Assembly: GCA_963815145.1 (NCBI GenBank) | Contig: CAWFFS010000027.1 | Location: 448,751-512,750 of the forward strand | Direction: 5' to 3' | DNA from: an uncultured delta proteobacterium | Lineage (GTDB): Bacteria > Desulfobacterota > DSM-4660 > Desulfatiglandales > HGW-15 | DNA: 64,000 nt | Part shown: piece by piece, positions 33,975-59,314 of the stretch | Position numbering within the stretch: the stretch's first letter is position 1 | Layout: each line of letters opens with the position of its first letter | Notes under the pieces: generated by a model | What the model was told of the DNA's origin: nothing | The model's database searches: none | Seen by the model: only the letters and a program-made list of their open reading frames with translations | Position numbers and translations under genes: made by a program

Positions 33975-33989
33975 CAGGAGGTTTTCAAG

Positions 33990-34781: not shown

Positions 34782-34816
34782 GAACTGTCCATGTAGCTTT
34801 GGGATAAAATTCAGGG

Positions 34817-35860: not shown

Positions 35861-36609
35861 ATCTTGAAGTGACAAATATCCGGTTCTCCTATAACGGTCA
35901 CCAGGTATTAACCGATGTTACATTTTCTATCGAACCGGGGCAGGTGGTATGTGTCCTTGGCGTAAACGGGGCTGGCAAATCCACCTTGCTTAAATGTCTT
36001 AACCGCATACTGAAGCCCCAAACAGGGGTTGTACTGGCTGATGGTGATGATTTATTCCATATGGGTTCCAACAGAATAGCCCGCCTTATGGGGTATGTCC
36101 CCCAGCGACACCCTGAAACACAATCTACAGTCTTTGAAACAGTACTTATGGGGAGGAAACCTTATATTCAATGGTCTCTCGGGCAGGAGGATTATGCCAT
36201 TGTAGAAGAGACTATAGAGCAGATGCATATAGCTCATCTGGCTATGCGAAAGGTTTGTGATCTGAGCGGAGGTGAAATCCAGAAGGTAATAATAGCCAGG
36301 GCTCTTGCTCAGTCACCGGAGGTCCTGCTCCTGGATGAACCTACAAGTAATCTTGACCTTAAAAACCAGCTTGAAGTCATGAGGCTGGTTCGCAGTGTGG
36401 TTAAATCGAAGGGGCTGTCCGCAGTCATTGCCATTCATGACCTGAATATCGCCCTGCGGTTTGCTGACAGCTTTGTCTTTTTAAAAGAAGGGCAGATCCA
36501 TGAAATATGCAAAAAGAACGAGTTGTGTCCTGAGATGATCCACCAGGTTTATGGTGTGGATGTGGCATTGAGTGAAGTAAACGGGCACACCCTTGTGGTT
36601 CCTTTATAA
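35857..36609 (+). CDS. ABC transporter ATP-binding protein (FecE/BtuD type)
   Basis: Walker A GVNGAGKST, signature LSGGEIQ, Walker B LLLDEPTSNLD. 4-nt overlap with the permease gene. Confidence 0.9.
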   Translation: MNLEVTNIRFSYNGHQVLTDVTFSIEPGQVVCVLGVNGAGKSTLLKCLNRILKPQTGVVLADGDDLFHMGSNRIARLMGYVPQRHPETQSTVFETVLMGRKPYIQWSLGQEDYAIVEETIEQMHIAHLAMRKVCDLSGGEIQKVIIARALAQSPEVLLLDEPTSNLDLKNQLEVMRLVRSVVKSKGLSAVIAIHDLNIALRFADSFVFLKEGQIHEICKKNELCPEMIHQVYGVDVALSEVNGHTLVVPL

Positions 36610-36633
36610 GAACACACTGCATGGAGAAGCATC

Positions 36634-37731
36634 ATGAAGAAGTTCATTATATTTGTATGTTGTTTCATTTTAGGCATCCCATTGATATCCGGTGCCGCTG
36701 CATCAATAGATGTAACCGATATGGCTGGCCGTCATGTGACAACCCAGGTTAATCCGGGCCGAATCCTGTGCCTGGGTCCGGGTACCTTGCGTCTTATCGT
36801 ATATCTTCAGGCAGAATCCAGGTTAGTGGGTGTCGAAGATATGGAAAAGATGAATCCGGGCGGAAGGCCATATTGGATTGCACATCCGGAGCTTCATAAA
36901 CTCCCCCGGTGCGGCCCCGGAGGACCGGCGGGTATAGGTAAAAAACCGGACCTGGAAACAGTTCTTTCATTAAGGCCGGATATTATATTTACCACCTATA
37001 TGGAAGGAACAATGGCCGATGATATACAGAAGACACTCGGTATTCCGGTAATTGTATTGAGTTATGGAGAATTTGCGACTTTCGATGAGACGGTCTACAA
37101 ATCATTGCTTGTCGCAGGCAGTATCCTGGACAGGGAAAAACGTGCCAGTGATGTTGTCGCATATATCGAATCCCTGAGAAAAGACATGCTGAACCGAACC
37201 AGCGAAGTACCTGATGGGGCAAGGCCATTAGTGTATGTGGGCGGCATAGGTTACAAGGGGTCATACGGCATAGAAAGTACAGAGCAGAGTTATATCCCCT
37301 TTAAATGGCTCAACGCGGATAATGTATCCGAGCGTGTTAAGGCCACCACAGGCAGCCACGTATTCATGGATAAGGAAATACTCTTAAAATTGAATCCCGA
37401 TGTCATATTCATCGATGGCGGCGGTATAGATCTGGTAAAAGATGATTTCAGAAAAAAGCCAGAATACTACCGCACCCTGCGCGCCTTTTCCCGGCAGCAG
37501 GTATATACCCTGTTGCCATTCAACTGGTATGCAACCAACATCGGGACTGCCCTGGCAGATGCCTATGCCATAGGCAGGATCATTTATCCGAAGCGATTTA
37601 AAGATATCGATCCGGAGATCATGGCTGATGAGATATATAAGTTTTTACTTGGGACGCCTGTGTATAAGGATATGAAAAAAGCTTATGGCACTATAGGGCA
37701 AAAAGCACAGTTTAAATCACTGACTAATTAA
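36634..37731 (+). CDS. Periplasmic substrate-binding protein, class 8 (FhuD/BtuF-like)
   Basis: Signal peptide, 365 aa. The pattern RILCLGPG..R..VYL and PDIIF/PDVIFIDGG is typical of siderophore/corrinoid-binding proteins. Confidence 0.75.
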   Translation: MKKFIIFVCCFILGIPLISGAAASIDVTDMAGRHVTTQVNPGRILCLGPGTLRLIVYLQAESRLVGVEDMEKMNPGGRPYWIAHPELHKLPRCGPGGPAGIGKKPDLETVLSLRPDIIFTTYMEGTMADDIQKTLGIPVIVLSYGEFATFDETVYKSLLVAGSILDREKRASDVVAYIESLRKDMLNRTSEVPDGARPLVYVGGIGYKGSYGIESTEQSYIPFKWLNADNVSERVKATTGSHVFMDKEILLKLNPDVIFIDGGGIDLVKDDFRKKPEYYRTLRAFSRQQVYTLLPFNWYATNIGTALADAYAIGRIIYPKRFKDIDPEIMADEIYKFLLGTPVYKDMKKAYGTIGQKAQFKSLTN

Positions 37732-37733
37732 TA

Positions 37734-38378
37734 ATGGAGGAAACTATCATGGATGCAAAACAAATAATGGAAGGCGATAAGTTTAAAAAATGCGCTGACT
37801 TTCACGGCCATATCTGCCCCGGTCTTTCAATAGGATACAGGGCTGCCGAAACTGCCATGGGATGGCTCAGGGAAAATCGTTCTGAGGATGAGGAGATCGT
37901 TGCCATTGTAGAGACTGACGCCTGTTCTGCTGATGCGGTACAGGTCCTTACCGGCTGCACATTTGGCAAGGGCAACTTTATTTATAAGGATTACGGAAAG
38001 ATGGTGCTTACTCTCATGAGCCGAAATAGCGGTCAGGGCGTTCGTGTGGCAATGAAGGCCGGGACCTTTTCTCCCGATGATATCCATCAAATGCTTCTCA
38101 GGAAGGTAATGAACGGGTCAGCCAGTGAGGAAGAAAGAAAGCAGTTTCAGGACCTCCATTTCAAACGGAGTTGTGACATTCTTGAGAAGCCTGAAGAAGA
38201 TCTGTTTACCATCAAGCCTGTTCAAATGGCACTGCCTTCAAAAGCACAGATAGCGCCATCCGAACCCTGTGCGCTTTGCGGGGAACCAACCATGCGCACA
38301 AAGCTGCAAGAATCTGTCCACGGCCTGATCTGTAGAGGTTGCGCGGAACAGTCTACAGCATGGTATAACACATTGTAA
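37734..38378 (+). CDS. FmdE-family protein with C-terminal Cys4 zinc ribbon
   Basis: FHGHICPGLSIGYRAA motif of the FmdE domain. C-terminal CALCGEP...CRGC. Confidence 0.75.
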   Translation: MEETIMDAKQIMEGDKFKKCADFHGHICPGLSIGYRAAETAMGWLRENRSEDEEIVAIVETDACSADAVQVLTGCTFGKGNFIYKDYGKMVLTLMSRNSGQGVRVAMKAGTFSPDDIHQMLLRKVMNGSASEEERKQFQDLHFKRSCDILEKPEEDLFTIKPVQMALPSKAQIAPSEPCALCGEPTMRTKLQESVHGLICRGCAEQSTAWYNTL

Positions 38379-38402
38379 AACTATTTTAGAGAGTGTAGTG
38401 AG

Positions 38403-38825
38403 TTGCCAAAACGAATTTGTATTATAGATGGACAGGGAGGTGGAATCGGAGCAGCTGTGATCCGGTCCATAAAGAGCAACTTTGAAGAATCAATTACGCT
38501 GATTGCTCTGGGTACAAACACCATAGCAAGCGCCAATATGTCGAAGGCTGGAGCCAACCTTGTTGCAACAGGTGAAAATTCCATATGCAGGACAGTGCCC
38601 GAAGCTGACATAATAATAGGTCCTGTGGGGATAGCATGGCCTAATGCCATGATGGGGGAGGTGACTACTGAAATTGCCGAGGCGGTTGTATCAAGCCCTG
38701 CATATAAAGTGTTACTGCCTTTCACTCAGGAGCCTGTTGAGATAATAGGCGTAGTAAAAGAACCACTACCCCACATGATTGAAAAAGCTGTAAACCTGAT
38801 TAAGGAGGTTTTAAAAAATGTGTGA
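38403..38825 (+). CDS. DUF3842-like protein
   Basis: The N-terminal IIDGQGGGIGAAVI motif and about 140 aa match my recollection of DUF3842. TTG start. Confidence 0.5.
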   Translation: MPKRICIIDGQGGGIGAAVIRSIKSNFEESITLIALGTNTIASANMSKAGANLVATGENSICRTVPEADIIIGPVGIAWPNAMMGEVTTEIAEAVVSSPAYKVLLPFTQEPVEIIGVVKEPLPHMIEKAVNLIKEVLKNV

Positions 38826-39006
38826 AGCAAACGCATATCTTATTAAAGACGGTGAGGAGATTCTTATAATGGAATCTGTAGACATGGTCACGCCTGAAGA
38901 AGAGGAGAGTTGGCATCTGGTAAATATTTTCGGCGAGCAGAAAGACGTAAAAGCCAAAATCAGGGAAATGAACCTGGTTGATCACAGAATCTTGTTTGAA
39001 GCGTAA
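38818..39006 (+). CDS. CooT-family small nickel-binding protein
   Basis: 62 aa beginning MCEANAYL. Cys2 is the Ni ligand in characterised CooT. Overlaps the upstream gene by 8 nt. Confidence 0.6.
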   Translation: MCEANAYLIKDGEEILIMESVDMVTPEEEESWHLVNIFGEQKDVKAKIREMNLVDHRILFEA

Positions 39007-39111
39007 TAAATCCAGGAATATATCTGCAGAAGCTGATTATTTTTGATTTCGGGGCGAAGTCCGAATAGTTTTTAAATATTTAACCATCATTTCATTGCAA
39101 TCTGAATAAAA

Positions 39112-39165
39112 GGCCACGAAGGTCTGTTGTATCAGTCATGATACACGCCCTTGCGGCCTTTTTTA
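39112..39165 (+). terminator. Terminator-like hairpin element, GCCACGAAGG family copy 2
   Basis: AAAAGGCCACGAAGG...CCUUGCGGCC followed by U6, with an inner stem GUAUCA / UGAUAC. Confidence 0.6.
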
Positions 39166-39192
39166 TGAACACCGATAAAAGGAAAACCATAC

Positions 39193-40179
39193 ATGGATAA
39201 AACCGAAGTCCTGCGCTCTATTAAGTATGACCTGGTAGAGTATATCCAGGCAAAGGTTTCGGTAGACTTTGGCAATGCCGGACAAATTCCCATTTCCTTT
39301 ATCTATAATAAAAAGACCTATGTAATCAAAGAAGTACTGGGCAGGTTTTTAAAGAGAGATGTTTTTTTATCCAACGGATTTCTGGTGACAGTCAATGATG
39401 GTGATGTTTTTTATATTTATTTCCATACCCGGAATTTTGCTCAACATATGCAAATATGTGAAGGAAACTGGATTTTATGTTTCAGGATACTTAATGACCA
39501 TGAGTTGATGGCTTTTTACAGGGAGGATCGAAAGGTGCTTTTAAATATGACAATGAAGATGCTCGTGGATTTCCACGGACATATTTGCCCTGATCTGGTT
39601 ATAGGTGCAAAACTCAGCGAGTATATCCAGCAACTGGTCTCTGAAACCAGTGGGTTGGATGTCGGTATATCGATTCTGGCACAGAATTGTACTTCTGCCA
39701 TTGATGCTATCCAGGTCCTGCTGGGTACAACCTTTGGAAACCAACGCCTGCAGGTCCTGGATTTTGGGAAACACATCTATTCCCGCTTAATCATCGATGC
39801 TGAAAAAAGTTACATGTTTTCCATGAGGAAGCAGTATTATGGCGATGAAGATGAATTCGAAAACCTGGAACAGAAGATTTTAAACAGCCAGATAACACTG
39901 GAGGAAGCAGTCAATTTTCAAAAATTAATGGACAGACGTATAGAGACGCTTTTTTCTCTGACACCTGCGGAGCTTTTTGGCTGTGACAGCATTGAAAGGG
40001 GACAGCCATTCTATGAAATACCAAGTATTTACCTGACATGCAGCGAGTGCGGACATCAGGTGGTAAAAAATCGATCAATAAATTACCACAATAAAATCTA
40101 TTGCGTCTCATGTTTTCAAGATGTCTGTAAAGAATGTAAACACTACAACGTTCAATGGAAGGAAAAAAACAATGGATAA
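39193..40179 (+). CDS. Fusion protein: unknown N-terminal domain (~115 aa), FmdE domain and C-terminal zinc ribbon
   Basis: FHGHICPDLVIGAKLSEY (FmdE motif). C-terminal CSECGH...CVSC...C.EC. Confidence 0.65.
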   Translation: MDKTEVLRSIKYDLVEYIQAKVSVDFGNAGQIPISFIYNKKTYVIKEVLGRFLKRDVFLSNGFLVTVNDGDVFYIYFHTRNFAQHMQICEGNWILCFRILNDHELMAFYREDRKVLLNMTMKMLVDFHGHICPDLVIGAKLSEYIQQLVSETSGLDVGISILAQNCTSAIDAIQVLLGTTFGNQRLQVLDFGKHIYSRLIIDAEKSYMFSMRKQYYGDEDEFENLEQKILNSQITLEEAVNFQKLMDRRIETLFSLTPAELFGCDSIERGQPFYEIPSIYLTCSECGHQVVKNRSINYHNKIYCVSCFQDVCKECKHYNVQWKEKNNG

Positions 40180-40375
40180 TAACACAAAGGCAAGGATACA
40201 GATTGAACACTGGCTGAAACACAACAATTCTCATATTCAGGAATATGAGGCTTTTGCCTCCTACCTTGAAAAAGCCGGAAAAGAGGAGAGTGCTTTGTAT
40301 ATCCGGGAAATGGCTACCCTGGTTATCCAAAGCAATGAAAAACTGGAAATGGCTCTTGAGAAACTGGTGGATTAA
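40172..40375 (+). CDS. Small helical protein with an H-x3-H-x3-H ladder
   Basis: 67 aa from ATG 40172, overlapping the upstream stop by 8 nt. The segment EHWLKHNNSH places His at i, i+4 and i+8. Confidence 0.4.
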   Translation: MDNNTKARIQIEHWLKHNNSHIQEYEAFASYLEKAGKEESALYIREMATLVIQSNEKLEMALEKLVD

Positions 40376-40397
40376 ATATGAGAGAGATTGTTTTGTC

Positions 40398-41387
40398 ATG
40401 AAGAGCGTTATTGTTACCGGTGGCGCGGGTTTTATCGGAAGCTGCTTTGTCCAGAAGCTCAACAAAGAAGAAATAGATGATATCCTTATTGTTGATGATC
40501 TAAAGGAAAGCGATAAATGGAAAAATCTTTCAGGCCTTCGTTTTTCAGATTACCTTCATAAAAACACATTTCTGGAAGCTGTCAATTCCGATAGTCTGAA
40601 ATTTGAACCCCAGGCTGTTGTATAGATGGGTGCATGTTCAGACACTACCGAAAATAACGCAGAGTATCTGATGGAAAACAATTACAGGTTCAGCAGTATA
40701 CTCGCAGAATGGACAGTAAATAGGGATATACGATTTCTCTATGCAAGCAGCGCCGCCACCTATGGCGGCGGTAAAAAAGGTTTTTCCGATGAAATTGACC
40801 TGTATTCGCTCCGCCCGCTCAATATGTACGGATACTCAAAACATCTTTTTGATCTCTATGCAGATCAGAGCGGGCTTCTTGATAAAATTATCGGCCTTAA
40901 ATATTTTAATGTTTTCGGACCGAATGAATACCACAAGGGTAAGATGGCAAGTGTAGTGTTTAAAGAATTTCACCAAATTAAAGAAACCGGACGAGTAAAT
41001 CTGTTCAAATCTCATCGTGATGATTACTACGATGGGGAACAGATGCGTGATTTTATTTATGTCAAGAATTGTGTAGATGTAATGTGGTGGCTCTTAATGT
41101 ATTCAAAAGCAAACGGGCTTTTCAACCTGGGCACAGGACGTGCCAGGTCGTGGAATGACCTCATAAATGCAGTTTTTTCAGCAATGGGACGAGAGCCCCA
41201 AATCAATTACATTGACATGCCACCAACAATCCGTGACAACTATCAGTATTTTACACAGGCTGATATGAGCAGACTCAGGAAAACAGGCTGTCCTCTGGAT
41301 TTTCGATCTTTGGAAGAATCGGTACAGGATTATATTGTGAACTATTTGCAGACCAATCAACCACAAATAAGCAAACCGGATAAATAG
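40398..41387 (+). pseudogene. hldD: ADP-L-glycero-D-manno-heptose 6-epimerase interrupted by an in-frame TAG at 40623..40625
   Basis: VTGGAGFIGS, GACSDTTE, LYASSAATYGG, YGYSK and NVFGPNE..KG.MASV are collinear with E. coli HldD. TAG aligns with the His of the FHEGAC motif. Confidence 0.8.
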
Positions 41388-42410: not shown

Positions 42411-42654
42411 AATAATGATCTGAAGAAGGATTTCACAGTCTACCATGTCGTTGAAAAGCACGGCTGGCTTTGGATCTCTGTTGTTGGCAGTTAAACTGGA
42501 TAGGAATAATGACTTTCCCAGATACAATGAATTACAATGGAGGATCAGGAACAAAAAGCGTTTTAGTAAAAGCAAGTTTTCTTGATAACTCTATGATTAT
42601 TACTATGATTATTATGTTATCAAATTTAATACACATAGAAAAAGGACATAAACG

Positions 42655-43497
42655 ATGGATGACATACGTAATTTTTTGCGTAAAGCAGTTTTGCTTGTGC
42701 TGCCTGGCATTCTTTTATTGGCCGCGTGCGCGAGTTATAAAAAGCAAAGCAATTTAGGAATTCCGCAAGGATACTTGCCTTTTGAGGCGCTTCCCGACAG
42801 TCTGGTACTATTACCACCTCCTCCTGCCGAAGGCACGCCTGCTTTCACTCTCGACGAGGATATAAGCCAGAAAAGCCTTGCTCTGCGCGGTACATGGCGC
42901 TGGAAGTTGGCTAGTGAGGACGCAAACCTGATGTTTCCCCATGCAGCGGGCACATTTTCCTGTGCAATAAATGCACCAATCACGGAGCAGGATACACCGC
43001 ATCTTTACAGGTTACTGCTTCGCACTCTTGCCGATGCAGGCCTTGCTACTGACAAGGCCAAGATAAAATATATGCGCATCCGCCCCTTTGTTGCAAACAA
43101 AACCCAAACCTGTGCACCGGATCAGGAGCCGGTCCTGAAAGATAACGGCTCTTATCCTTCGGGCCATGCCGCCGTTGGTTGGGCATGGGCGCTCATTCTG
43201 AGTGAAATTGCGCCTGAGCAGACTGATGCAATAATTGCCAGAGGGCGGGCTTTTGGCCAGAGCCGGGTTATTTGTAATGTCCACTGGCAGAGCGATGTCA
43301 TTGAGGGGCGTTTCATAGGAGCTGCCGTGGTTGCCCGGTTGCATGCCGATCCAGAGTTCAGGGCTGAATTAAAATCGGCTAAGGCCGAACTTGCATTCGT
43401 TCGGAAAAAAGGCTTGCCGCCCCAACGTGATTGTAAGGCTGAAACTGAGGCCTTATCTCAATATCCACCGTCGGCACCCTGGCCAGCCAACAAATAG
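42655..43497 (+). CDS. Class A (PAP2-type) bacterial acid phosphatase
   Basis: The three PAP2 motifs: KIKYMRIRPF, PSGH and SRVICNVHWQSDV. Lipoprotein-like signal (LLLAAC). Confidence 0.85.
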   Translation: MDDIRNFLRKAVLLVLPGILLLAACASYKKQSNLGIPQGYLPFEALPDSLVLLPPPPAEGTPAFTLDEDISQKSLALRGTWRWKLASEDANLMFPHAAGTFSCAINAPITEQDTPHLYRLLLRTLADAGLATDKAKIKYMRIRPFVANKTQTCAPDQEPVLKDNGSYPSGHAAVGWAWALILSEIAPEQTDAIIARGRAFGQSRVICNVHWQSDVIEGRFIGAAVVARLHADPEFRAELKSAKAELAFVRKKGLPPQRDCKAETEALSQYPPSAPWPANK

Positions 43498-43629
43498 AAA
43501 ACCAAGTATAGAAGGCAGGATTTTATCTATTTAAATAAATTTCAAACTGAAATATCAACAGGAATATTGTATATGTTAATGCAATAAATAAAAGATGACA
43601 AATAGCAAGGAAAAGAAAGGAGGTATATT

Positions 43630-43935
43630 ATGCCGGAATTTTGTAGTCCCTTTTCAGTATTGAAAAGCGATAGAAAATTAACAAAGGAAGAATTGGTTCG
43701 TGCAATACGATTTATGGTCGCCGCTGAATATGAAGCCATACAGCTTTATCAGCAGACTGCTGAAAGCACGAATGATAAGCTTGCAAAAACGGTTCTCATA
43801 GACATTGCCAACGAGGAAAAAGAGCATGCCGGGGAATTTCTTCGCTTGTTGCGTGAGTTGGACCCGAAGGAAGAAGACTACTATAAAGAAGGTTATGAAG
43901 AAGTTGAGGAGATGATTGAAAAACTAAAGAAGTAA
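43630..43935 (+). CDS. Small ferritin-like protein (EncFtn / rubrerythrin-like)
   Basis: 101 aa. AAEYEAIQLY...IANEEKEHAGEF carries the ExxH di-iron motifs of the EncFtn-type family. AGGAGG RBS. Confidence 0.6.
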   Translation: MPEFCSPFSVLKSDRKLTKEELVRAIRFMVAAEYEAIQLYQQTAESTNDKLAKTVLIDIANEEKEHAGEFLRLLRELDPKEEDYYKEGYEEVEEMIEKLKK

Positions 43936-43994
43936 TCATTTATTACCCTGCCTGGGACAGCAAAAAAGCTGTCCCAGACAGGGTAATTTTAACT

Positions 43995-44603
43995 TTAATC
44001 AAATGCCATATCAGTTTTCCAAACTTCCCAGACTTTTCCAACAAGATCAGGTCCGGGGTTAAGGGTTTGCTTGCCCGGTTTCCAGCCTGCGGGCGTGGCT
44101 TCAGTGCCTTCACTTTTCCTGACATATTGAAACGCCTGGATTTGCCTTATACTCTCCATTACATTTCTTCCGACAGGGTCAGTAAGAATTTCATATGCCT
44201 GCACAACACCGTCAGGATCGATGATGAATCTTCCTCTGGTATTAACACCTATCTCACCATTATATACTCCGTATATATTTCCCACTTTTCCACCTGCATC
44301 GGATAGCATGGGGAATGGAATGCCTTGAGGGACCATCTTAGATAGTTCATTATCTACCCACATCTTGTGAACATACATGCTATCAACGCTCATGGTCAGC
44401 ACTTCTACTCCGAGATTTTTGTATTCAGGGTATTTTGCAGCAACTGCTGCAACCTCGGTTGCTCATACAAAAGTAAAATCTCCAGGGTAAAAACATAAGA
44501 CAACCCATCTTCCCAGGTATTCTGATAACTGGATGCTAAAAAATTTACCATCTTGATATGCTGGAGCAATAAAATCCGGAGCTTTTTTCCCTACCTGAAT
44601 CAT
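43995..44603 (-). CDS. Peroxiredoxin (AhpC/Prx1 type) with in-frame UGA (candidate selenocysteine) at 44463..44465
   Basis: Two in-frame ORFs joined by a single TGA. The motif [14 protein letters not shown] corresponds to FYPxDFTFVCPTE. GGGAGG RBS before ATG 44603. A hairpin lies right after the UGA. Confidence 0.8.
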
Positions 44604-45048
44604 GGCCTTTACCTCCCTAACTGTATTTTCATTTTTTTTCTTTTGAATCATTTGGCGCCTGTGATTCTCCCACTGGTCCGCCAGTTGGTCTTGCACATTT
44701 TACCTTTAATTCTTCACCCATAGGCATACCTCCTTGTTTAATATTATGCAGGATTAACGATATCTACGTGCGGAATTTCTGCATTAAATTATACCATAAA
44801 TCTCCTAATCTAATCGAAATAATAGGGGCGTAAGACAACTATGCTAATGGTTCTGATTAGTTAAATAGGTTTTATGAGCAGGATATCTCTGCAGACAGAT
44901 TCCTGATCGGTTATTTCTTATCACAATAAATAGTCTTTGAGAAAAGCCATAAAGAACACTTGACATTTTAGAATTGCAAAATTAAAGTATGAGCTATTAA
45001 TAATATTAGATCATTCTAATAAACAGGCCTTTAAATAAGGAAGGTTAA

Positions 45049-45567
45049 ATGTCCGAAAATCAGATAACATCAACCATGGAAGATTACCTTGAGACAATAT
45101 TCCAGCTCAATAAAGAAAAGGGCGGAATCCGTGTAAAGAATATTGCCAAAAAAATGGGGGTTAAAATGCCCACTGTTACCAACATGCTTAAAATTCTCAA
45201 TGATAAAGGCCTGGTTGACTATGAAAAACATGAATATCTGGAGCTTACAGATAAAGGTCAAAGAATTGGTGGGGAAATTCAAAAAAGACATGATGTAATC
45301 AGGGATTTTCTTACTGATATATTAAAACTGGATCTTGTTTCGGCTGATGAAGAGGCGTGCAAGATGGAGCATGGCATAAGCACAGAAACGCTCAACCGGC
45401 TTATCAAATTTATTGAATTTGTGCAGACGTGCCCCAGAACCGGTGAAAGCTGGCTTAATTATTTTGAAGAATATTGCGAGAATGGCTTTAAACCCGAAAA
45501 ATGTAAAGAACACATGAAAAACTTTACCGCAGATTGTGAAGCAGAATTAATCACTATTAAACAGTAA
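45049..45567 (+). CDS. DtxR/MntR-family metal-dependent transcriptional repressor
   Basis: MEDYLETIF...IRVKNIAKKMGVKMPTVTNMLKIL...LTDKG is a typical DtxR N-terminal wHTH plus dimerisation domain. The C-terminal part is Cys-rich. Confidence 0.85.
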   Translation: MSENQITSTMEDYLETIFQLNKEKGGIRVKNIAKKMGVKMPTVTNMLKILNDKGLVDYEKHEYLELTDKGQRIGGEIQKRHDVIRDFLTDILKLDLVSADEEACKMEHGISTETLNRLIKFIEFVQTCPRTGESWLNYFEEYCENGFKPEKCKEHMKNFTADCEAELITIKQ

Positions 45568-45611
45568 AAAATTTTTACCCCGATAGTTAGAGAGAACTAA
45601 CAGAGTTAGTC

Positions 45612-45908
45612 ATGCCTAAAAATAATATTGACGACAGTAATATATTGGAAAAACTCCGGAGCAGCACCGAAGAAATCCATAGACGGCTGGATGTTCAATG
45701 CGCTTTGATGGAGAGTATCCTTAATAAAGAGAAGGATGCTGATAATTATCAGACTTCGGTTTTTAAGAAGAATAATGAGCAAGAAAAAAAATTAATCAGC
45801 GCTATAAGGGATACTATTGATGTTCTGGAGCAGACAAAAAAGTCCTTTAAATCCAAACGGCTGGAAATGTTGCGGAAAAAACTTACAGATGTGCTGATAG
45901 GAGCCTGA
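45612..45908 (+). CDS. Hypothetical coiled-coil protein
   Basis: 98 aa, charged and helical. Sits between the repressor gene and a terminator. I recognise no motif. Confidence 0.4.
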   Translation: MPKNNIDDSNILEKLRSSTEEIHRRLDVQCALMESILNKEKDADNYQTSVFKKNNEQEKKLISAIRDTIDVLEQTKKSFKSKRLEMLRKKLTDVLIGA

Positions 45909-45999
45909 TACATAAAACCTCCAACCATAAATTATCAATTTATGGTTGTTAAATCGGAATGTCTTACGGTCTTTGGCCTAAAGGCGCAAAGAAAGTGAA

Positions 46000-46046
46000 G
46001 GCGTAACTGACGGTAAAGTTATTACCGGCCGGTTACGCCTTTTTTA
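46000..46046 (+). terminator. Intrinsic terminator between the repressor unit and feoA
   Basis: Stem GGCGUAAC / GUUACGCC followed by U6. Confidence 0.65.
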
Positions 46047-46064
46047 TATTTAAAGGAGGATAAT

Positions 46065-46298
46065 ATGATTATGACAATAGGAAGCCTGGAAATGAACGAA
46101 ATAGCAAAAATTTCAGGCTATGCAAAAGAAGCCAGGCCTTTGATGAGCAGGCTGTTATCCATGGGACTCACAAAGGGAACGGAAATAAAGGTGGTGCGTG
46201 TGGCGCCTCTTGGTGACCCCATAGAGATAAATATAAGGGGATTTAACTTGAGTCTCAGGAAGGCTGAGGCTGAAGCTGTCCTCGTGGAAAGGAGTTAA
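46065..46298 (+). CDS. feoA: Ferrous iron transport protein A
   Basis: 77 aa. FeoA SH3-like pattern L..MGL..G..I.V......GDPIEI.IRG..LSLRK.EA. GGAGG RBS. Confidence 0.8.
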   Translation: MIMTIGSLEMNEIAKISGYAKEARPLMSRLLSMGLTKGTEIKVVRVAPLGDPIEINIRGFNLSLRKAEAEAVLVERS

Positions 46299-46302
46299 TA
46301 AG

Positions 46303-48624
46303 ATGAGTTCAATAACAATTAGCCTTGCAGGCAATCCCAATTGCGGAAAGACCACTTTATTCAACTGTCTTACAGGGGCAAAGCAAAGAGTGGGAAACTG
46401 GCCGGGGGTAACGGTTGAGAGAAAAACCGGTGTTTATAGTCATAAGGGTAAGGAAATAGAGGTTGTTGACCTTCCGGGAATATATTCCCTTTCTGCAACT
46501 TCCCTGGATGAAAAAATATCCAGAGACTTTGTTATATCCAGAGAGCCCGGTCTCATCCTGAATATAATAGATGCCTCAAACCTTGAAAGAAATTTGTATC
46601 TTACTGTTCAACTCCTTGAAATGAAGGTCCCCATGGTTGTGGCCCTCAATATGATGGATATTGCTGAGCAACACAAGATCAGGGTAAATATTGAAAAACT
46701 TGGAAAATATCTGGACTGCCCGGTAATTCCCATTGTTGCAAGCAGGAACCAGGGAATAGATAACCTCAGGGATGCTGTAAACAATACAGCAGTATCCGGA
46801 AAGATCCCCGAAGCAGGCTTTAGATATCCAGCCAAGATTGAACAGACAATAGAGTCCTTTAAAACTCTCCTAAAAGAACAGGCCGTGGCCAGGAATCTGG
46901 ACAGCAGGTGGCTGGCAATTAAACTCCTTGAAGAAGATGAAATGGCAGAGGAACTTGCCGAAAAAATATCTTCATCCGAACTGGAAGAAGCAAGGAAAAA
47001 GATGGACAAGATCCTTGATGATGATCCTGACATAATCATTGCGGACGCCCGGTACGGTTTTATCAACGGTGCATGCAGGGATGCGGTCGAAAAAAAATAC
47101 GAGGTCAGAAGAACCGTTTCGGATGACATTGATAATATTCTACTGAACCGGATTCTGGGCATCCCCGTATTTCTCGTGGCAATGTATGCGACATTCATGG
47201 TAACTATTAATATCGGGGGATGCTTTATAAATTTTTTTGATATTCTCTTCGGGACTGTGTTTGTTGAAGGTTTAGGCGCTGTTCTTAAAACTCTCCATTT
47301 TCCTGCATGGCTTGTTACCTTTCTTGCCGGAGGAATAGGCGGCGGTATACAGACGATGTCTACATTTATTCCACCCATAGGATTCATGTTTTTGTGCCTG
47401 GCAGTACTTGAAGACTCCGGTTATATGTCCCGTGCAGCCTTTGTAATGGACAGGTTTATGCGCTATGTAGGACTTCCGGGAAAATCATTTGTTCCCATGC
47501 TTGTGGGTTTCGGTTGTAATGTACCGGCTATTATGGCTACAAGGACACTTGATAATGAAAGGGACAGGACTCTGACCATAATGATGAATCCCTTCATGTC
47601 CTGCGGCGCAAGGCTTCCGGTTTATGCACTCTTTGCTGCGGCTTTCTTTCCTACATCAGGAAGTGCGCTTGTTTTCGGACTTTACATCGCTGGAATACTC
47701 CTTGCCATTATGACGGGCTTTATCCTCAAAAGCACTGTTCTTAAAGGGGAAATATCCCATTTTATAATGGAACTTCCTCCCTATCATTTCCCAACAGTCA
47801 GAGGTATTCTATATCATGCATATGAAAGGCTTAAAACCTTTATGTTCCGTGCCGGAAGAGTGTTGATACCCATCTTCGTGATACTTGCCTTTCTTAATGC
47901 ACTGGGCAGCAACGGCAGTTTCGGCAATGAAAACAGTAAAAACTCGATACTGAGTGCAGCAGGCCGTGCTATTACACCCGTATTCGAACCTATGGGACTA
48001 ACCGAAAAGAACTGGCCGGCTACAGTGGGGATCTTTACAGGGATCTTTGCAAAGGAAGCGATAGTGGGAACACTTGATGCGTTATATACCTCCATGGCCA
48101 AAGAAGATAGTGGCAAAGAGATGGAAAATTTTGATTTCATCGGCAATGTTGCTGAGGCATTCGGATCCATACCTGCCGCATTCTCTAAACTTGGCAGGAC
48201 CGTGACAGATCCCCTTGGCATAAGTGTTGGTGATGTTTCGAATGTTGATACTGCTGCCGGAGAGCAGGGGGTAAGCAAAACAACATTTGGCACAATGGTG
48301 GCAAGTTTTGACGGAAGGATCGGGGCAATCGCTTATCTCTTATTTATCCTTATTTATTATCCATGTCTGGCCGCCATTTCGGCTATATACCGTGAAACCA
48401 ATATAAAGTGGACCATCTTTGCAGGGACTTATTTAACTCTGCTTGCCTGGGTGGTTGCAACGTTGTTTTATCAACTCGGAACATTCATAAGACACCCCGG
48501 TACTTCGATGATGTGGGTTGTCATCCTGGGGGCGGTCTTTGGGGCATTTGTGTTCGGCATGAAAAAGGCTGCCGGAACAACCCCGGACAGGAAAAGTCGT
48601 TTTCATAAACTTAAAACTGTATAG
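46303..48624 (+). CDS. feoB: Ferrous iron transporter FeoB
   Basis: N-terminal G-domain (GNPNCGKTTLFN, DLPG), then a polytopic membrane domain. 773 aa. Confidence 0.95.
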   Translation: MSSITISLAGNPNCGKTTLFNCLTGAKQRVGNWPGVTVERKTGVYSHKGKEIEVVDLPGIYSLSATSLDEKISRDFVISREPGLILNIIDASNLERNLYLTVQLLEMKVPMVVALNMMDIAEQHKIRVNIEKLGKYLDCPVIPIVASRNQGIDNLRDAVNNTAVSGKIPEAGFRYPAKIEQTIESFKTLLKEQAVARNLDSRWLAIKLLEEDEMAEELAEKISSSELEEARKKMDKILDDDPDIIIADARYGFINGACRDAVEKKYEVRRTVSDDIDNILLNRILGIPVFLVAMYATFMVTINIGGCFINFFDILFGTVFVEGLGAVLKTLHFPAWLVTFLAGGIGGGIQTMSTFIPPIGFMFLCLAVLEDSGYMSRAAFVMDRFMRYVGLPGKSFVPMLVGFGCNVPAIMATRTLDNERDRTLTIMMNPFMSCGARLPVYALFAAAFFPTSGSALVFGLYIAGILLAIMTGFILKSTVLKGEISHFIMELPPYHFPTVRGILYHAYERLKTFMFRAGRVLIPIFVILAFLNALGSNGSFGNENSKNSILSAAGRAITPVFEPMGLTEKNWPATVGIFTGIFAKEAIVGTLDALYTSMAKEDSGKEMENFDFIGNVAEAFGSIPAAFSKLGRTVTDPLGISVGDVSNVDTAAGEQGVSKTTFGTMVASFDGRIGAIAYLLFILIYYPCLAAISAIYRETNIKWTIFAGTYLTLLAWVVATLFYQLGTFIRHPGTSMMWVVILGAVFGAFVFGMKKAAGTTPDRKSRFHKLKTV

Positions 48625-48646
48625 ATACAATTGGAGATTAAATAAA

Positions 48647-48886
48647 ATGATACTCTCAGATATAAAAGAATATTTTGCAAAGCATCCTGCTGCATCTCTT
48701 TCTGACCTTTCCATCCGCTTCAATGTTGAGCCGGAGGCTATGAGGGGAATGCTGGAGCACTGGATACGAAAAGAAAAACTGCGCAAGCTGGATCACGCCC
48801 CTTCATGTCCAAACTGCTGTTCAAACTGCAATTCGCATCACCTGGAAATATATGAGTGGACTGGTAAAAGGAGCGGAACATGTTAA
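48647..48886 (+). CDS. feoC: FeoC-like winged-helix protein with a C-terminal Cys cluster
   Basis: 79 aa. MILSDIKEYF....ASLSDLS..F matches the FeoC N-terminus. Cys cluster CPNCCSNC. Confidence 0.6.
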   Translation: MILSDIKEYFAKHPAASLSDLSIRFNVEPEAMRGMLEHWIRKEKLRKLDHAPSCPNCCSNCNSHHLEIYEWTGKRSGTC

Positions 48887-49224
48887 ATGATCTTCAGTGT
48901 GAAAAGGACAAATTCCGGGCGCTGATTGAAGAAGACATTATCGGCAATGTGGTAGAAAGGCTCAATATAAAGCATAGAAAGCCTCTCATGTCTCTGGCCA
49001 TGGGCAGGCCGGGTGAAAGACTGATTATTGTTGAGGTGAGAGCAGGAAGGCATGCCAGGGAAAGACTCACCTCTCTCGGGCTTAATCCCGGAGACCTGGT
49101 AGAAATAATCAATAACAGCAAAGATGGCAGGCTGGTGATCGGCCATAACAATACACGTGTAGCCATAGGCAGGGGAATCGGAGAGAAAATTCTTGTTACA
49201 GTATCCGATAATATCAAAAGTTAG
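48880..49224 (+). CDS. Second FeoA-domain protein
   Basis: The C-terminal 75 aa read G..L.IVEV..G....RL.SLGL.PG..VEI.....G..VI......VAIGRG...KILV. Confidence 0.7.
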   Translation: MLNDLQCEKDKFRALIEEDIIGNVVERLNIKHRKPLMSLAMGRPGERLIIVEVRAGRHARERLTSLGLNPGDLVEIINNSKDGRLVIGHNNTRVAIGRGIGEKILVTVSDNIKS

Positions 49225-49299
49225 ATTTTTGGCTTATTTACAATAAACGAGTAAGGAATAAAGAAATAGTATAAAGAAAATAAATAAAGGATCTCAGTT

Positions 49300-50391
49300 G
49301 TGAAAATAGATATTATCAAGATTACTTTTGTTACACTTTTTTTCTTAATCGCAGGTTTTGTGTCTGCACCGGTTGCAAGTTCAGGTGTATCAGGTAATTC
49401 GGACATAAAACCGGAAACCACAAATCCTGATAACGGATTATTTCAATCGGCTCTGGATGGGATTAATATAACCGGAGGAATCAGCGCGGGTTATTTTTAT
49501 GCATCCCATCCAGGGGAAGATACATCCGACGATGAATTTCTCCTTTCCAACTTTCTTATAGATATCTCGTCATCAGATGAGGACCTCCCCGTGGAATTTG
49601 TAGGGGCATTCGGCGAGACTTCTACACCATCGCTCCTGGACACTCCTGAAAACAATTCCAAATTCAGGGTAGAGTATGCATCCCTGAAATTAAAACCTGT
49701 CATCGGGTTAAGCCTGGAGGCCGGTCTGCTCCAGCCGAATGCCGGTTATGAAAACACATATACCTTCAACAACAAAAACATCATCCTGGGTGCGGTCGCT
49801 TCCCAGCAACCCTATAATGCCTATGGTGCCAGGATCGGATATGATGTGAACGGACTTTGTTTATGGGGCGGATATTTCAAGGAAAGACTTGCTGATGAGG
49901 AATACAATTCCCCTGATGCTGCCTGGGAAATCGGTTTAAGTACCTCCACCGGTGGTAATAACGTCACCCTGTATCATTATTACATCAAGGGGCAGAGGAA
50001 TCTGTCAGGAGCAGTTATTGAGCGCTCCATAGGTGATATTGACCTTGCATTTGTAATCGATTACTGGAGATGGGACAGTTCCGTGAAGAATTTATACGGA
50101 AGCAGGTCGTCCGTCGGTGGGGCGTTCTATATCTGTCCTAATTTTGGCAGGTTCTCGATCCCGCTGCGGCTTGAATACATCGACCAGAATAAAAGCCTGA
50201 TTTATATTGAAAGTCCGAACACAAAATATATATACACGGTAACAGTAAGCCCTACCTGGCATTTTAAAGAGAATGCCTATATCAGGGAGGAATCAGCCTA
50301 TGTAAAGGCTGATAAAGCATTTGCCGATGAAGATGGACACATCAGAGATAACAGAATAAATCTGGCAATAGAGTTGGGGTTCAAATTTTAA
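49300..50391 (+). CDS. Outer-membrane beta-barrel (porin-like) protein
   Basis: Signal peptide, alternating aromatic/Gly-rich strands, C-terminal ...ELGFKF (terminal Phe). GTG start. Confidence 0.5.
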   Translation: MKIDIIKITFVTLFFLIAGFVSAPVASSGVSGNSDIKPETTNPDNGLFQSALDGINITGGISAGYFYASHPGEDTSDDEFLLSNFLIDISSSDEDLPVEFVGAFGETSTPSLLDTPENNSKFRVEYASLKLKPVIGLSLEAGLLQPNAGYENTYTFNNKNIILGAVASQQPYNAYGARIGYDVNGLCLWGGYFKERLADEEYNSPDAAWEIGLSTSTGGNNVTLYHYYIKGQRNLSGAVIERSIGDIDLAFVIDYWRWDSSVKNLYGSRSSVGGAFYICPNFGRFSIPLRLEYIDQNKSLIYIESPNTKYIYTVTVSPTWHFKENAYIREESAYVKADKAFADEDGHIRDNRINLAIELGFKF

Positions 50392-50630
50392 ACAGGTGCG
50401 TCCTTCCCTTAATTTACACTGGAAAAAATACCTGTTAAATTTTATCTTGAATTACGGACATGGCAACTATAAAAATAATGAGGAAAAGGATCTAATTACA
50501 GCGCAGTTTGCTTTTGAATTTTAATTATTGCCCATCCAATAAAATTTTTTCAAGTATGATATTGATCATTTTCTGATAAAGTTATATTAAGTCATAATGT
50601 TTTCTGAGTTTTAATTCAAAGCGTGTTTGT

Positions 50631-51740
50631 ATGTTTCTGCTGTGGCTGATGTTGTTATTTCTGCCTGCTGTTGCGTTCTCGCAACCCAGTGTGATAGTGG
50701 AGGCAGACGTTCTCAATGTTCGCAGCAAACCCTGGGGTGAGAGAATCGGACGTGTCTATGATGGTCAGCAGTTTCTGGTTGAAGAGCGTCAGGGAGAATG
50801 GGGACTCATTATTTATAAGACCGGGGAAAAAGGATGGATTTCCCTGGATTATACCCGGCAATATGTCGCCCCAGTTCCTACAGTTTCCAAAGCTAAATAT
50901 TGTACCGAATTGAATGCCGAATTCGATCTCCTTGGCTGGAAGGATATCCGCTGCCGACCGGAGGACTGGAAGTCGGGCGGCGCTTCGGTACAGGGCAGGC
51001 CCCTGCTGTATACCGAGATCAAGGGCGCAAGCCCCTCGTTAACCCTCATGATCTGCAGTGTCCATTCCGATGAAAATACATGCTATCAGTGCTTCAGACT
51101 AAACGACATGCTGCGGAAAAATCCGGGTCTGCTCATAAACCGGCTTATTATCGTTCCCCTGCTCAATCCGGACGGATTCCTGCGGAAGCAAAAGACGCGC
51201 ACCAATGCTCATGGCGTGGATCTCAACAGGAATCTGCCATCCAGCGACTGGCAAAAACTCGCAGTCAACGCCTGGGTTCAACGTTATGGCCGTGACCCAC
51301 GTCGTAATCCAGGGCCGAATGCCAACAGCGAGCCCGAAAACCACTTTCTGCTTGATCTCATCGAGCATATGCAGCCCGATAAGATCATTTCCATCCACTC
51401 TCCGCTTAACTTTCTGGATCTTGATTTTCTGGAACAGCCCTCCGACGATCAGAATCTCCGGCAAGTTTCAGAAAAGGCAACGGCCCTCGCTGCGGACATT
51501 TCGAAAAACAGCAACTTTCACTTCCGCAGTTATAACACCTTCCCGGGTTCGCTCGGGCGTTACGGCAGCGAATGGCGCATTCCTATATTTACCCTTGAAC
51601 TGCCCGACGTAAATCCATCACTTTCCGCCTCGTTCTTCACCCGTGTCAGAGACAGTCTGGTCCATTCCTTCAATGTCATTCTCGATGAACATAAAACCGC
51701 CATGTCCAAAGGCAATAGCCATGATTTGAACCGAAAATAA
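50631..51740 (+). CDS. SH3b-domain plus M14-family zinc carboxypeptidase/amidase (MpaA-like)
   Basis: SH3b pattern VLNVRSKPWGERIG.V..G....V......W..I. M14 motifs HSDE, NPDG and HGVDLNRN. Confidence 0.7.
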   Translation: MFLLWLMLLFLPAVAFSQPSVIVEADVLNVRSKPWGERIGRVYDGQQFLVEERQGEWGLIIYKTGEKGWISLDYTRQYVAPVPTVSKAKYCTELNAEFDLLGWKDIRCRPEDWKSGGASVQGRPLLYTEIKGASPSLTLMICSVHSDENTCYQCFRLNDMLRKNPGLLINRLIIVPLLNPDGFLRKQKTRTNAHGVDLNRNLPSSDWQKLAVNAWVQRYGRDPRRNPGPNANSEPENHFLLDLIEHMQPDKIISIHSPLNFLDLDFLEQPSDDQNLRQVSEKATALAADISKNSNFHFRSYNTFPGSLGRYGSEWRIPIFTLELPDVNPSLSASFFTRVRDSLVHSFNVILDEHKTAMSKGNSHDLNRK

Positions 51741-51855
51741 TGATGCTCTTTTAATTTTCTTGACACAAAAGGTTTGCCTCATATACTCTTTCATAAAAAG
51801 GGATTTCTTATCAATCAGGCTAAAATTTTAATCCCTTTGATTTTAGAGATATAAC

Positions 51856-52122
51856 ATGGTCAAACGCTTTTCCATTTTTTTAGTCGGCATTTTTTTCCTG
51901 GCCACTCTAATAGGGGCATTCCATAGCCATAAAGATGGCTTAGAACATCACGACTGCCCCATCTGCATGACTATCTACCATCAGTCTAATTCAGTCTTTA
52001 CTCCCCCTGCTACCTGTGAAATCCCTGCTGCAATTTCAGGATGTGTATATATCAAGACTGATTCAGCTTTTATCAATAAAATCTATTTTGGTCCGGCACA
52101 GGGCCGGGCACCTCCAGCCTAA
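51856..52122 (+). CDS. Small membrane-anchored His/Cys-rich protein (DUF2946-like)
   Basis: 88 aa with an N-terminal TM helix, then HSHKDGLEHHDCPIC. Confidence 0.4.
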   Translation: MVKRFSIFLVGIFFLATLIGAFHSHKDGLEHHDCPICMTIYHQSNSVFTPPATCEIPAAISGCVYIKTDSAFINKIYFGPAQGRAPPA

Positions 52123-52255
52123 GTACATTAAAAATCCTGTAATCCATTAAATGGACCCTCGACCCATGGAGTATAATATTTGTACACCCGCAGGGTGATG
52201 TGCAGCTTTATGGGTATCTGTACTATTTACAATTTGAATATACGGAGGTGTTATT

Positions 52256-53656
52256 GTGAGAATCATGAAATCAATTGCTATCCTCTGCGTGCTGTCTTTG
52301 TTTCCAACAGTGGTGTTTGCTCAGAATATGGAAGACCGGCTGAAACATCTCGAAGAAACACTGAAACAACAGCAGCAGACCATAGATCAACAGCAAAAAA
52401 CAATTGAACAGTTACAAACTAAACTCAATCAAATTCAGCCCGCTGCTGCCACAGGCGCCGGGACCGGCCAGATCACTTCATCCGGACAGGTGCAAGAGCA
52501 AATGAAAGAATTGAACGAAAAGGTGGATAATGTTGTTGAAGCGCAGCGTAAGGTTCTGCCGAGCGAATTCAACCCTTCCATAGGGTTGGTAGGTGAAACA
52601 GTCTTTTCCTATCGAAACCGGAACAGCGATGAGACAGGAAGCGAACGGCCCGGGGGATGGGACGCTTTCCAGCGCTCGGTGGAGCTGAATGCAGCCGCCA
52701 CAGTCGATCCATTCGCCACTGCGTATGTGGTGGCCAACGCCACTGCGGACGCTACGACCAGGGAATCAACATTTGGCATCGAGGAAGCGGCCTTGGAAAC
52801 CAATTCCCTTCCCTGGAACCTTACCGTGAAAGCCGGACGCTTTTTCGGTGAATTCGGCCGTCTGTCTGACATCCACGATCATGAACTCCCCTTTGTGAAC
52901 CGTCCCCTCGCACTCGACCAGTATATCGGCGGAGAATCGAGGACTGACGGCCTGCAGCTTAACTGGCTGCTGCCGACTGAACATTACGTGAGTATTACAA
53001 TGGGTGCAGGAGACCAGTTCGGCGGGGACGCGCCCCCGAATAACGTCGATGGATTCCGCCATGGCAGTGGACTTAATTACTGGGGTCGTCTCTCTACATA
53101 TTTCGATCTGACCCCGGATATCTCCTTTGAACCCGGTGTTTCGGCCCTGTGGAACCCGAGCACTATTGACCGGGGAGGATCGTTTCTCCAGCCTGACGGC
53201 AGTTCGCTGACTGAACGGGAGCGCCGTTTGTTTGGCCTGGATATGGTGTTAAGCTACAAGCCGCTGCGAAATAATCAGTTCAAAAGCCTCACGTGGGGGA
53301 CTGAACTGCTTTACAGCGACAACCGCTATGATGCCGATACGGAAGATACGCTAACCGGCCGAACCGTCGGCTCCCTCGGACTCTATTCATATATTACCTA
53401 TAAATTTCACAGGCAGTGGTCGACCGGTTTCCTCTTCGATTATGTGGAGGACGCTACGGACAGCCATGCCAGGACCATTGCCTATTCGCCGTATATTACA
53501 TGGGCCTTGAGCCACTGGAACCAGCTCCGGCTTCAATATACCTATACCGATTACAACGCTGAATCAGCGGCCACCGGCCTGCGTCCGGATAGCGCTGTTT
53601 ATCTGCAATGGGCCTGGATCATCGGTTCACACTCTCACGGCTGGCAGCAACGATGA
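52256..53656 (+). CDS. Outer-membrane beta-barrel protein with N-terminal Gln-rich coiled coil
   Basis: Signal peptide, coiled coil LKHLEETLKQQQQTIDQQQKTIEQLQTKL, then about 350 aa of alternating strand-like sequence. Confidence 0.5.
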   Translation: MRIMKSIAILCVLSLFPTVVFAQNMEDRLKHLEETLKQQQQTIDQQQKTIEQLQTKLNQIQPAAATGAGTGQITSSGQVQEQMKELNEKVDNVVEAQRKVLPSEFNPSIGLVGETVFSYRNRNSDETGSERPGGWDAFQRSVELNAAATVDPFATAYVVANATADATTRESTFGIEEAALETNSLPWNLTVKAGRFFGEFGRLSDIHDHELPFVNRPLALDQYIGGESRTDGLQLNWLLPTEHYVSITMGAGDQFGGDAPPNNVDGFRHGSGLNYWGRLSTYFDLTPDISFEPGVSALWNPSTIDRGGSFLQPDGSSLTERERRLFGLDMVLSYKPLRNNQFKSLTWGTELLYSDNRYDADTEDTLTGRTVGSLGLYSYITYKFHRQWSTGFLFDYVEDATDSHARTIAYSPYITWALSHWNQLRLQYTYTDYNAESAATGLRPDSAVYLQWAWIIGSHSHGWQQR

Positions 53657-53676
53657 TAATAAAAGGAGAAATACCT

Positions 53677-54609: not shown

Positions 54610-54611
54610 AT

Positions 54612-55370: not shown

Positions 55371-55372
55371 AT

Positions 55373-56275: not shown

Positions 56276-56396
56276 CGCATGTAAAAATACAGATATAAAT
56301 AGGAAAAGTGTTAGCAACTTCGACTTTTCTTTGGCATCCCATCTGCGGTTGAGAGCCCGAAATATTGGATCCTCATTCTTCATCGGGACAGATTCC

Positions 56397-56609
56397 TCAC
56401 TTCTTCAGAATGATCGGTAGTAAAAGTGCTAGCACCAGTCCGAGAAAAAGAAATAAAAAGAAGGTAAAACCGCCAGTCCTGAGAGATGCTTTTTTAATAT
56501 TCCTCTTGTCGGGATAATGGCGACTGTATTCCTGGTATGTGACAATATAGGCCATAACCGCTGCTATAATACTAAAAATTACAGAGATGAAAAACAGTGC
56601 TACAACCAT
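56397..56609 (-). CDS. Small two-TM membrane protein
   Basis: 70 aa with two hydrophobic helices flanking a basic loop. No motif recognised. Confidence 0.35.
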   Translation of the reverse strand: MVVALFFISVIFSIIAAVMAYIVTYQEYSRHYPDKRNIKKASLRTGGFTFFLFLFLGLVLALLLPIILKK

Positions 56610-56633
56610 ATTGTTTATCCATATATGGTTATC

Positions 56634-57912: not shown

Positions 57913-57999
57913 AGTACATACTCCATTTTTAAATTGGATTTTGATCCGGTCATAAAACTGTTTTCAGGGCGCGGCCTGGCAGAAGCTTATTATCGGTAA

Positions 58000-58385
<386 letters not shown>

Positions 58386-59296: not shown

Positions 59297-59314
59297 AGTT
59301 ACTTTCTCCTTTTT

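Follow-up and report, generated by a model that had tools for sequence, protein, structure and literature searches.

The gene described here lies on the minus strand of the window, that is, the whole 64,000-nucleotide stretch of DNA that was analyzed, at positions 43995..44603. A frame of 202 codons runs there from a conserved internal Met to a TAA stop (43997..43995) and encodes a protein core with the thioredoxin fold of the AhpC/Prx1 type. This frame holds a single internal stop, TGA 44465..44463, in the context FTFV-TGA-ATE, and the list of open reading frames (ORFs) shows the core as two pieces on the minus strand (44463..44696 and 43995..44402). The two pieces share one frame, as had been stated in a preliminary description of this DNA. 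Once they had been joined and the stop replaced by Cys, the resulting protein matched the Pfam domain AhpC-TSA (1.5e-36), as well as Redoxin and 1-cysPrx_C, the last of which is not specific to the 1-Cys type, since the domain is also found in the Prx1 type. Downstream of the TGA lies a hairpin of the bacterial SECIS kind, UUGCAGC-AGUU-GCUGCAA (44435..44452, minus strand), and upstream of the core there is a short reading frame (44629..44721, minus strand), here referred to as the N-terminal arm, which ends at TGA 44631..44629, one base off the core frame.

The gene, which we call prxU on the grounds given below, is flanked by a convergent EncFtn/rubrerythrin-like gene (43630..43935) and by a divergent gene for a DtxR-family metal repressor (45049..45567), the latter followed by feoA, feoB and feoC (ca. 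46000..49200). Between prxU and the EncFtn-like gene, a 19-nt inverted repeat with a T6/A6 loop (43943..43986), which was read directly and recovered in part by the terminator scan, is likely to serve as a bidirectional terminator. This neighborhood was not conserved among the relatives of the gene (81 loci). Metal-homeostasis genes abound around prxU (42655..63396), including ZnuA-type ABC transporter genes (53608..56275), a ZIP transporter (60090..60833) and CbiM (61631..62245), and a TonB-dependent receptor with a FecCD-type ABC transporter is found farther upstream, at 31809..37731. A 466-aa ORF (52256..53656, plus strand), which overlaps the ZnuA-like gene just downstream, had no Pfam match at an E value of ≤0.001.

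Among solved structures, the best matches of the window protein were typical 2-Cys peroxiredoxins of the Prx1, Prx2 and AhpC kinds (PDB entries 4fh8, 1qmv [human Prx2] and 1we0 [AhpC]; E values of 1e-44 to 1e-47), with alignments that cover residues 44 to 227. The active-site Pro, Thr and Arg are common to the window protein and these enzymes. The TGA codon (44463..44465), which is residue 47 in the short form of the protein and ca. 86 in the long form (see below), is aligned to the peroxidatic Cys of FTFVCPTE. The preliminary description had assigned it to just this position, and the alignment with Cys-containing homologs bore this out. Compared with the 2-Cys enzymes, the window protein would carry Sec in place of the peroxidatic Cys and has Thr in place of the resolving Cys, the motif being TEATPAGW in the window and GEVCPAGW in the best PDB matches. 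To this scaffold, PrxU adds an N-terminal arm with a Cys and a second Cys within LCFYP (TGT codon, 44493..44495, minus strand), which is invariant in PrxU and replaced by Phe in typical Prx1.

The assignment to PrxU comes from the NCBIfam model NF040737 (peroxi_PrxU), an equivalog model for a thioredoxin-dependent peroxiredoxin with a cutoff of 270 bits. The unedited 202-aa core scored 377.7 bits, and the 243-aa protein reconstructed from ATG 44727, with Cys written for Sec and one A removed, scored 398.7 bits. Scores for the AhpC equivalog TIGR03137 (187 bits; cutoff, 272) and for the 1-Cys (Prx6-type) models NF009668 and NF009669 (117 and 129 bits; cutoffs, 211 and 261, respectively) all fell below their cutoffs. 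The window gene is an ortholog of PrxU, a protein that is already known and curated. Sec-containing peroxiredoxins, with a TxxU motif, appear among the selenoprotein families that have been verified by experiment (PMC13188914; PMC9312934); PrxU was originally obtained in pure form from Eubacterium acidaminophilum (Sohling et al. 2001, as cited in PMC13188914), and a Sec-Prx is annotated in Desulfococcus multivorans (PMC5109826). The window protein shares with PrxU the TxxU motif with Sec as the peroxidatic residue and is, like PrxU, devoid of the C-terminal resolving Cys. Its long form (ca. 241 aa; Sec at ca. 86) agrees with the seleno-Prx of C. sticklandii, CLOST_2406, which has 240 aa and Sec84 (PMC3091704). 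The sole difference from PrxU is a shift of the arm by one base in the window assembly, probably an artifact; the host here is an uncultured relative of Desulfatiglandales.

PrxU is a widespread family, with members in the genomes of hundreds of anaerobes. When the GTDB species genomes were scanned for the DNA motif DFTFV-TGA-ATE, at least 120 further loci were found, and the matches listed belonged to Firmicutes, Synergistota, Planctomycetota, Nitrospirota and others. The earlier remark that Sec-containing peroxiredoxins are known from a few anaerobes was therefore an understatement, both with regard to these loci over many phyla and to the place of the family in selenoproteome reviews.

Next to this motif search, a scan of GTDB species genomes provided a set of closest loci, defined as the best 80 matches (74 to 91% protein identity), and at all of them (80/80) the peroxidatic codon was TGA. 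The set spans Desulfatiglandales, Syntrophales/Smithella, Thermodesulfovibrio, Spirochaetota, Acidobacteriota, Calditrichota and other groups; at the level of phyla, Desulfobacterota, Nitrospirota, Spirochaetota and Acidobacteriota are represented, among others. With respect to the closest relative (L001; 91% amino acid identity), dN/dS was 0.065 upstream of the TGA and 0.034 downstream of it (dS of ca. 1.1 to 1.3), and this low downstream value indicates that the 155 codons after the TGA are translated. The TGA at 44463..44465 was read again in an independent contig of the same strain (L081), which excludes a one-off base error.

The hairpin starts after a 10-nt spacer and consists of the 5' arm UUGCAGC (44452..44446), the loop AGUU (44445..44442) and the 3' arm GCUGCAA (44441..44435), all on the minus strand. 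The invariant G and U of the loop are located at +22/+23, counted from the U of the UGA, and the 7-bp stem with its AGUU loop is present as originally reported. On its own, the hairpin folds at −9.5 kcal/mol, with a z score of −2.3 in a 66-nt context. A loose SECIS-like pattern, which called for a stem of 6 bp or more, a GU in the loop and a spacer of 8 to 14 nt, was matched at 29 of the 2440 TGA trinucleotides of the window, and by itself the hairpin is within chance expectation. It stands out from chance through the comparison with homologs, in which it is conserved and covaries.

We compared the hairpin across the PrxU relatives in an ungapped alignment of 54 nt around the TGA (n = 79 in the loop and pair counts). 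The SECIS of the window was common to all the PrxU relatives examined; 99.4% of the cells of the 7-bp stem were paired, and four of the seven stem pairs showed compensatory changes on both sides, at synonymous sites. The pair 24-33, for example, was G-C in 48 sequences, A-U in 15, U-A in 9, C-G in 3 and G-U in 4. Its two positions are the third positions of a Ser/Ala codon and of an Ala codon, so that these changes are synonymous and thus driven by the RNA. The covariation score was 0.419, compared with 0.156 ± 0.013 for shuffled alignments (none of 500 reached the observed value) and with 0.121 at most for slid registers. In the loop, with the consensus [A/G]GU[U/C], G and U were invariant, while the first and last bases covaried (A..U, 41; G..C, 36), giving AGUU in 41/79 sequences and GGUC in 36/79. 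The conservation of the stem-loop in relatives, on which the preliminary description had made its proposal depend, was thus borne out in those examined. A search of 44300..44560 against Rfam (gathering thresholds; E value of ≤10) gave no SECIS family match and one chance miRNA match. Of the SECIS search suggested earlier, then, the fit to a loose pattern held and a match to a covariance model did not, and Rfam appears to be without a model that fits the PrxU hairpin.

The E. coli fdhF SECIS offers a useful comparison. In both genes, the hairpin lies within the coding sequence, directly 3' of the UGA, and exposes G and U in a 4-nt apical loop. In fdhF, the loop is GGUC, the spacer is 11 nt long and G/U are at +23/+24, compared with 10 nt and +22/+23 in prxU, and the predicted geometry of the prxU SECIS is that of fdhF within 1 nt. 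The prxU hairpin differs in having no bulged U in the stem, in its length of 7 bp and in that no extended lower helix is conserved. Along the established bacterial route, SelB-GTP-Sec-tRNASec binds the apical loop and brings Sec to the UGA in the A site. By the same route, the UGA at 44465..44463 would be decoded as Sec, with the G and U of the loop displayed to SelB, a mechanism that we infer from the observed geometry and covariation.

Two other ways of reading the TGA have to be considered. It could be a plain stop, arising from a nonsense mutation in a pseudogene or from a TGC/TGT-to-TGA error, in which case there would be no full-length protein; at face value, the ORF is indeed interrupted, and the window holds further disrupted genes. 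However, an accidental stop would not be expected to recur at the same codon in 80/80 relatives and at the further motif loci, nor to be followed by a conserved and covarying SECIS and by codons with a dN/dS of 0.034, and the second contig of the strain has the same TGA. We consider the plain-stop reading effectively refuted. The TGA could also be read as Trp or Gly, under genetic code 4 or 25, and many database homologs do have FTFVWATE; among the PrxU proteins listed from the databases (P0001 to P0120), this is the reading in most. Yet the W is a gene-calling artifact, because one of these proteins (P0003) is the code 4 translation of a locus (L062) whose codon is TGA. Moreover, TGA ends 8 of the 46 window ORFs that are covered by Pfam domains up to their last codons, no other convincing TGA-split ORF was found in the window and no ORF besides prxU needs read-through. 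TGA being a normal stop elsewhere in the window, a reassigned code is excluded for practical purposes, and we attach next to no probability to it.

Sequence evidence of these several kinds (TGA in 80/80 loci, covariation of the hairpin, dN/dS of 0.034 and a score above the cutoff of the PrxU model) supports the original proposal of a Sec-containing peroxiredoxin with a SECIS, and we estimate a probability of about 0.93 that prxU is a genuine Sec-decoded PrxU gene. This figure refers to the core claim; the subordinate claims on Cys9, on two isoforms and on an assembly artifact stand outside it and are graded separately below. For the host genome, we infer the capacity to use Sec. Within the 64-kb window, none of the ca. 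55 ORFs scanned with Pfam was selA, selB or selD, and ARAGORN detected no tRNA-Sec (selC).

With regard to annotation, the preliminary description had expected gene callers to miss such a gene. This is correct for generic gene callers, which split prxU or translate the TGA as Trp, and incorrect for NCBI, which has the dedicated model NF040737. Public protein sets thus hold many mistranslated PrxU selenoproteins. In the genome concerned here, the prxU pieces belong joined, and the A-run discussed below is worth a check. The recoded UGA and its SECIS were recognizable from the raw sequence alone.

The N-terminal arm was absent from the preliminary description, which had started a peroxiredoxin of ca. 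202 aa at ATG 44603, behind GGGAGG. Its frame, its ribosome-binding site and its AhpC/Prx1 type were correct, but the start of the family gene, which has ca. 240 codons, is located ca. 39 codons farther upstream, and ATG 44603 is an internal Met. Database homologs mostly have 237 to 242 aa and follow a common layout, with the arm, a variable charged linker and K-E-[EV]-x-x-M at the start of the Prx domain. The arm, which is ca. 38 residues long and carries an invariant Cys, corresponds to positions 2 to 34 of the NF040737 profile. At 80/80 loci, arm and core share one frame, and in Firmicutes loci the match to a long-form query from Firmicutes extended over practically the whole 239 residues and took in the arm. 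In the window, the arm is encoded and conserved, but shifted by one base relative to the core. The long-form start, ATG 44721, has a Shine-Dalgarno sequence, AAGGAGG (44729..44735, minus strand), 7 nt before it, in the same layout as in the closest relative, and a further in-frame ATG is located upstream, at 44727. Over the first 20 arm codons, the window and the closest relative show six synonymous differences and no nonsynonymous one, at a dS of ca. 1, indicating that selection acted on the arm up to the very recent past and may do so even now. In an AlphaFold2 model of a Cys-form homolog, the core had pLDDT values of >90, and residues 6 to 11 and 22 to 36 had values of <50.

What puts the arm out of frame in the window is a single surplus A in an A8 homopolymer (44632..44639, minus strand), and the removal of one A joins arm and core. 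At this site, the closest relative reads GATAAAAAT, with the codons GAT AAA AAT. For comparison within the strain, we had two Logan contigs from run ERR11571143, 99.94 to 99.96% identical to the window. One of them (L081) corresponds to 42471..52393 (99.94% identity over 9.9 kb) and differs only by a single nucleotide polymorphism (SNP) at 47946 and by a 5-nt deletion at this very A-rich spot (44640..44644); its arm is likewise out of frame, by −4 with respect to the in-frame version, compared with +1 in the window. The other (L202) corresponds to 33193..40995 and differs in 7.8 kb by two 1-nt indels (36177 and 36627) and a SNP (38476); an ABC ATPase that is uninterrupted in the window is broken by one of these indels. 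In the window itself, enolase is split (57040..57912 and ca. 56636..57090, minus strand), with its N-terminal 290 aa and its C-terminal half in different frames, by a 1-nt insertion in a G-run near 57081..57083 (CTG-G-GTC versus the expected CTG-GTC), probably an assembly indel. The small indels in the two contigs and in enolase point to indel-prone reads or assembly. As for other samples of the strain, exact-protein look-ups returned the same Logan sample only, and an exact 35-mer scan of JGI metagenomes returned none.

Regarding the extra A, we lean toward a homopolymer assembly error. The alternative is that the frameshift is real and prxU is split, so that of the two forms only the 202-aa short one would be made, from GGGAGG and ATG 44603, together with an arm peptide of 30 to 32 aa, and slippage of the RNA polymerase or the ribosome on the A8 run might now and then restore the long form; this would contest the artifact alone and leave the selenoprotein identity as it is. 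Both same-strain assemblies are out of frame at the junction, the internal Shine-Dalgarno sequence and ATG are intact in the window and conserved family-wide, and the short piece alone passes the PrxU model. Some disruptions may also be real, given that an in-frame TAG in an epimerase gene (see below) is common to the window and the second contig. On the other hand, the two assemblies disagree exactly at this low-complexity, A-rich site, and elsewhere they differ mostly by 1-nt indels; the arm is in frame in all 80 relatives, and its purely synonymous divergence from the closest relative over the first 20 codons would require the frameshift to be very recent. A real split is therefore conceivable, though we rather doubt it, and an assembly error in the A8 run is the explanation that we favor. 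Programmed ribosomal frameshifting as a family feature was also considered and was rejected, since 80/80 relatives are in frame without such an A-run.

The Met of ATG 44603..44601, where the short form would begin, is nearly invariant in the PrxU family. It is preceded, at a distance of 8 nt, by the internal Shine-Dalgarno sequence GGGAGG (44612..44617, minus strand), which is conserved family-wide. We searched for matches of at least 6 nt to AAGGAGGTGA located 3 to 18 nt before the internal Met (loci L001 to L080 and L082 to L201). Such a match was present at 78/80 of the closest loci, compared with 1.9% of control in-frame positions, and in a second, more diverse set, a match of this type was found at 53/64 loci and the internal ATG at 60/64. 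Along similar lines, the Glu codons just upstream of the internal Met were GAG rather than GAA in a ratio of 86:12, compared with 350:556 in the gene body (Fisher P = 1e-21). PrxU genes are, by this codon and motif usage, evidently under nucleotide-level selection for a putative internal ribosome-binding site. This suggests that PrxU may be made from one frame as a long form, with Cys9, and a short form. In the window, the predicted starts would be AAGGAGG with ATG 44721 and GGGAGG with ATG 44603, the latter probably giving the 202-aa form. The E. acidaminophilum protein is said to have ca. 203 aa with Sec47, which would match the short form; its locus was absent among the best 80 matches to the Firmicutes query.

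Cys9 of the arm (TGT codon, 44695..44697, minus strand) was invariant in 86 aligned sequences, and so was the Cys of LCFYP. In the proposed catalytic cycle, the selenolate would reduce H2O2 or an organic hydroperoxide and become a selenenic acid, which would be resolved by a thiol and then reduced by thioredoxin, as suggested by the function of the family. With no resolving Cys at the canonical C-terminal site, this thiol would be that of thioredoxin or that of Cys9, and the latter, on a flexible arm, is the natural candidate for a tethered thiol. We put forward Cys9 as a tethered resolving thiol as a hypothesis; in the AlphaFold2 model, its pLDDT is <50, and a placement of the arm near the active site is unsupported by the model. 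The label "1-Sec", which the preliminary description had given to the enzyme, is correct insofar as the canonical resolving Cys is absent and is not established insofar as Cys9 and the Cys of LCFYP are invariant.

Taken one step further, there could be two PrxU proteins, a long one in which Cys9 acts as a tethered thiol (Se-S) and a short one without it, with the A8 tract as a real and possibly slippage-prone uncoupler of the two. We regard this combination as unlikely. No description of a dual start or of a role for Cys9 was found in the searchable literature, and an invariant N-terminal Cys together with a conserved internal start would, if confirmed, carry modest weight for peroxiredoxin enzymology.

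Clustering of the gene neighborhoods over the 81 loci yielded no conserved partner gene, reductase included. At 17 of these loci (e.g., L030), a 570-aa protein whose N terminus, on inspection of the sequence, resembles a pyridine-nucleotide-disulfide oxidoreductase is encoded ca. 2.5 kb upstream of prxU on the same strand. It could be a reductant partner of PrxU; it is absent from the window.

Apart from PrxU, we found a second group of Sec-containing peroxiredoxins, with the motif WTVLFFYPADFTFV-U-ATE, in metagenome-assembled genomes of Rokubacteria, Planctomycetota and Nitrospirota (loci L082, L085, L086, L121, L123, L126, L136, L142, L146 and L195 to L201). Here, too, the UGA is at the peroxidatic codon of an AhpC-TSA protein and is followed by a hairpin. 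Its SECIS, GCUGCUCUGGCAGAGCAGC, is unlike that of PrxU, and these proteins have neither the GC.RP arm nor the Cys of LCFYP. The window gene is not of this type, and its membership in the group was rejected.

Two further observations concern the rest of the window. An HldD-like NAD-dependent epimerase gene (40245..41387, plus strand) has an in-frame TAG (40623..40625) at the His of a conserved motif (FHEGA in E. coli HldD). The contig L202 has the gene interrupted at this point as well, and a true nonsense mutation is one of the possible explanations of the TAG. Finally, genes for a cytochrome c7-like protein, a molybdopterin oxidoreductase, a 4Fe-4S protein and an NrfD-like membrane protein (3391..8683, plus strand) form a cluster similar to the Qrc quinone-reductase complex of sulfate reducers; such a complex would be consistent with a host belonging to Desulfobacterota.
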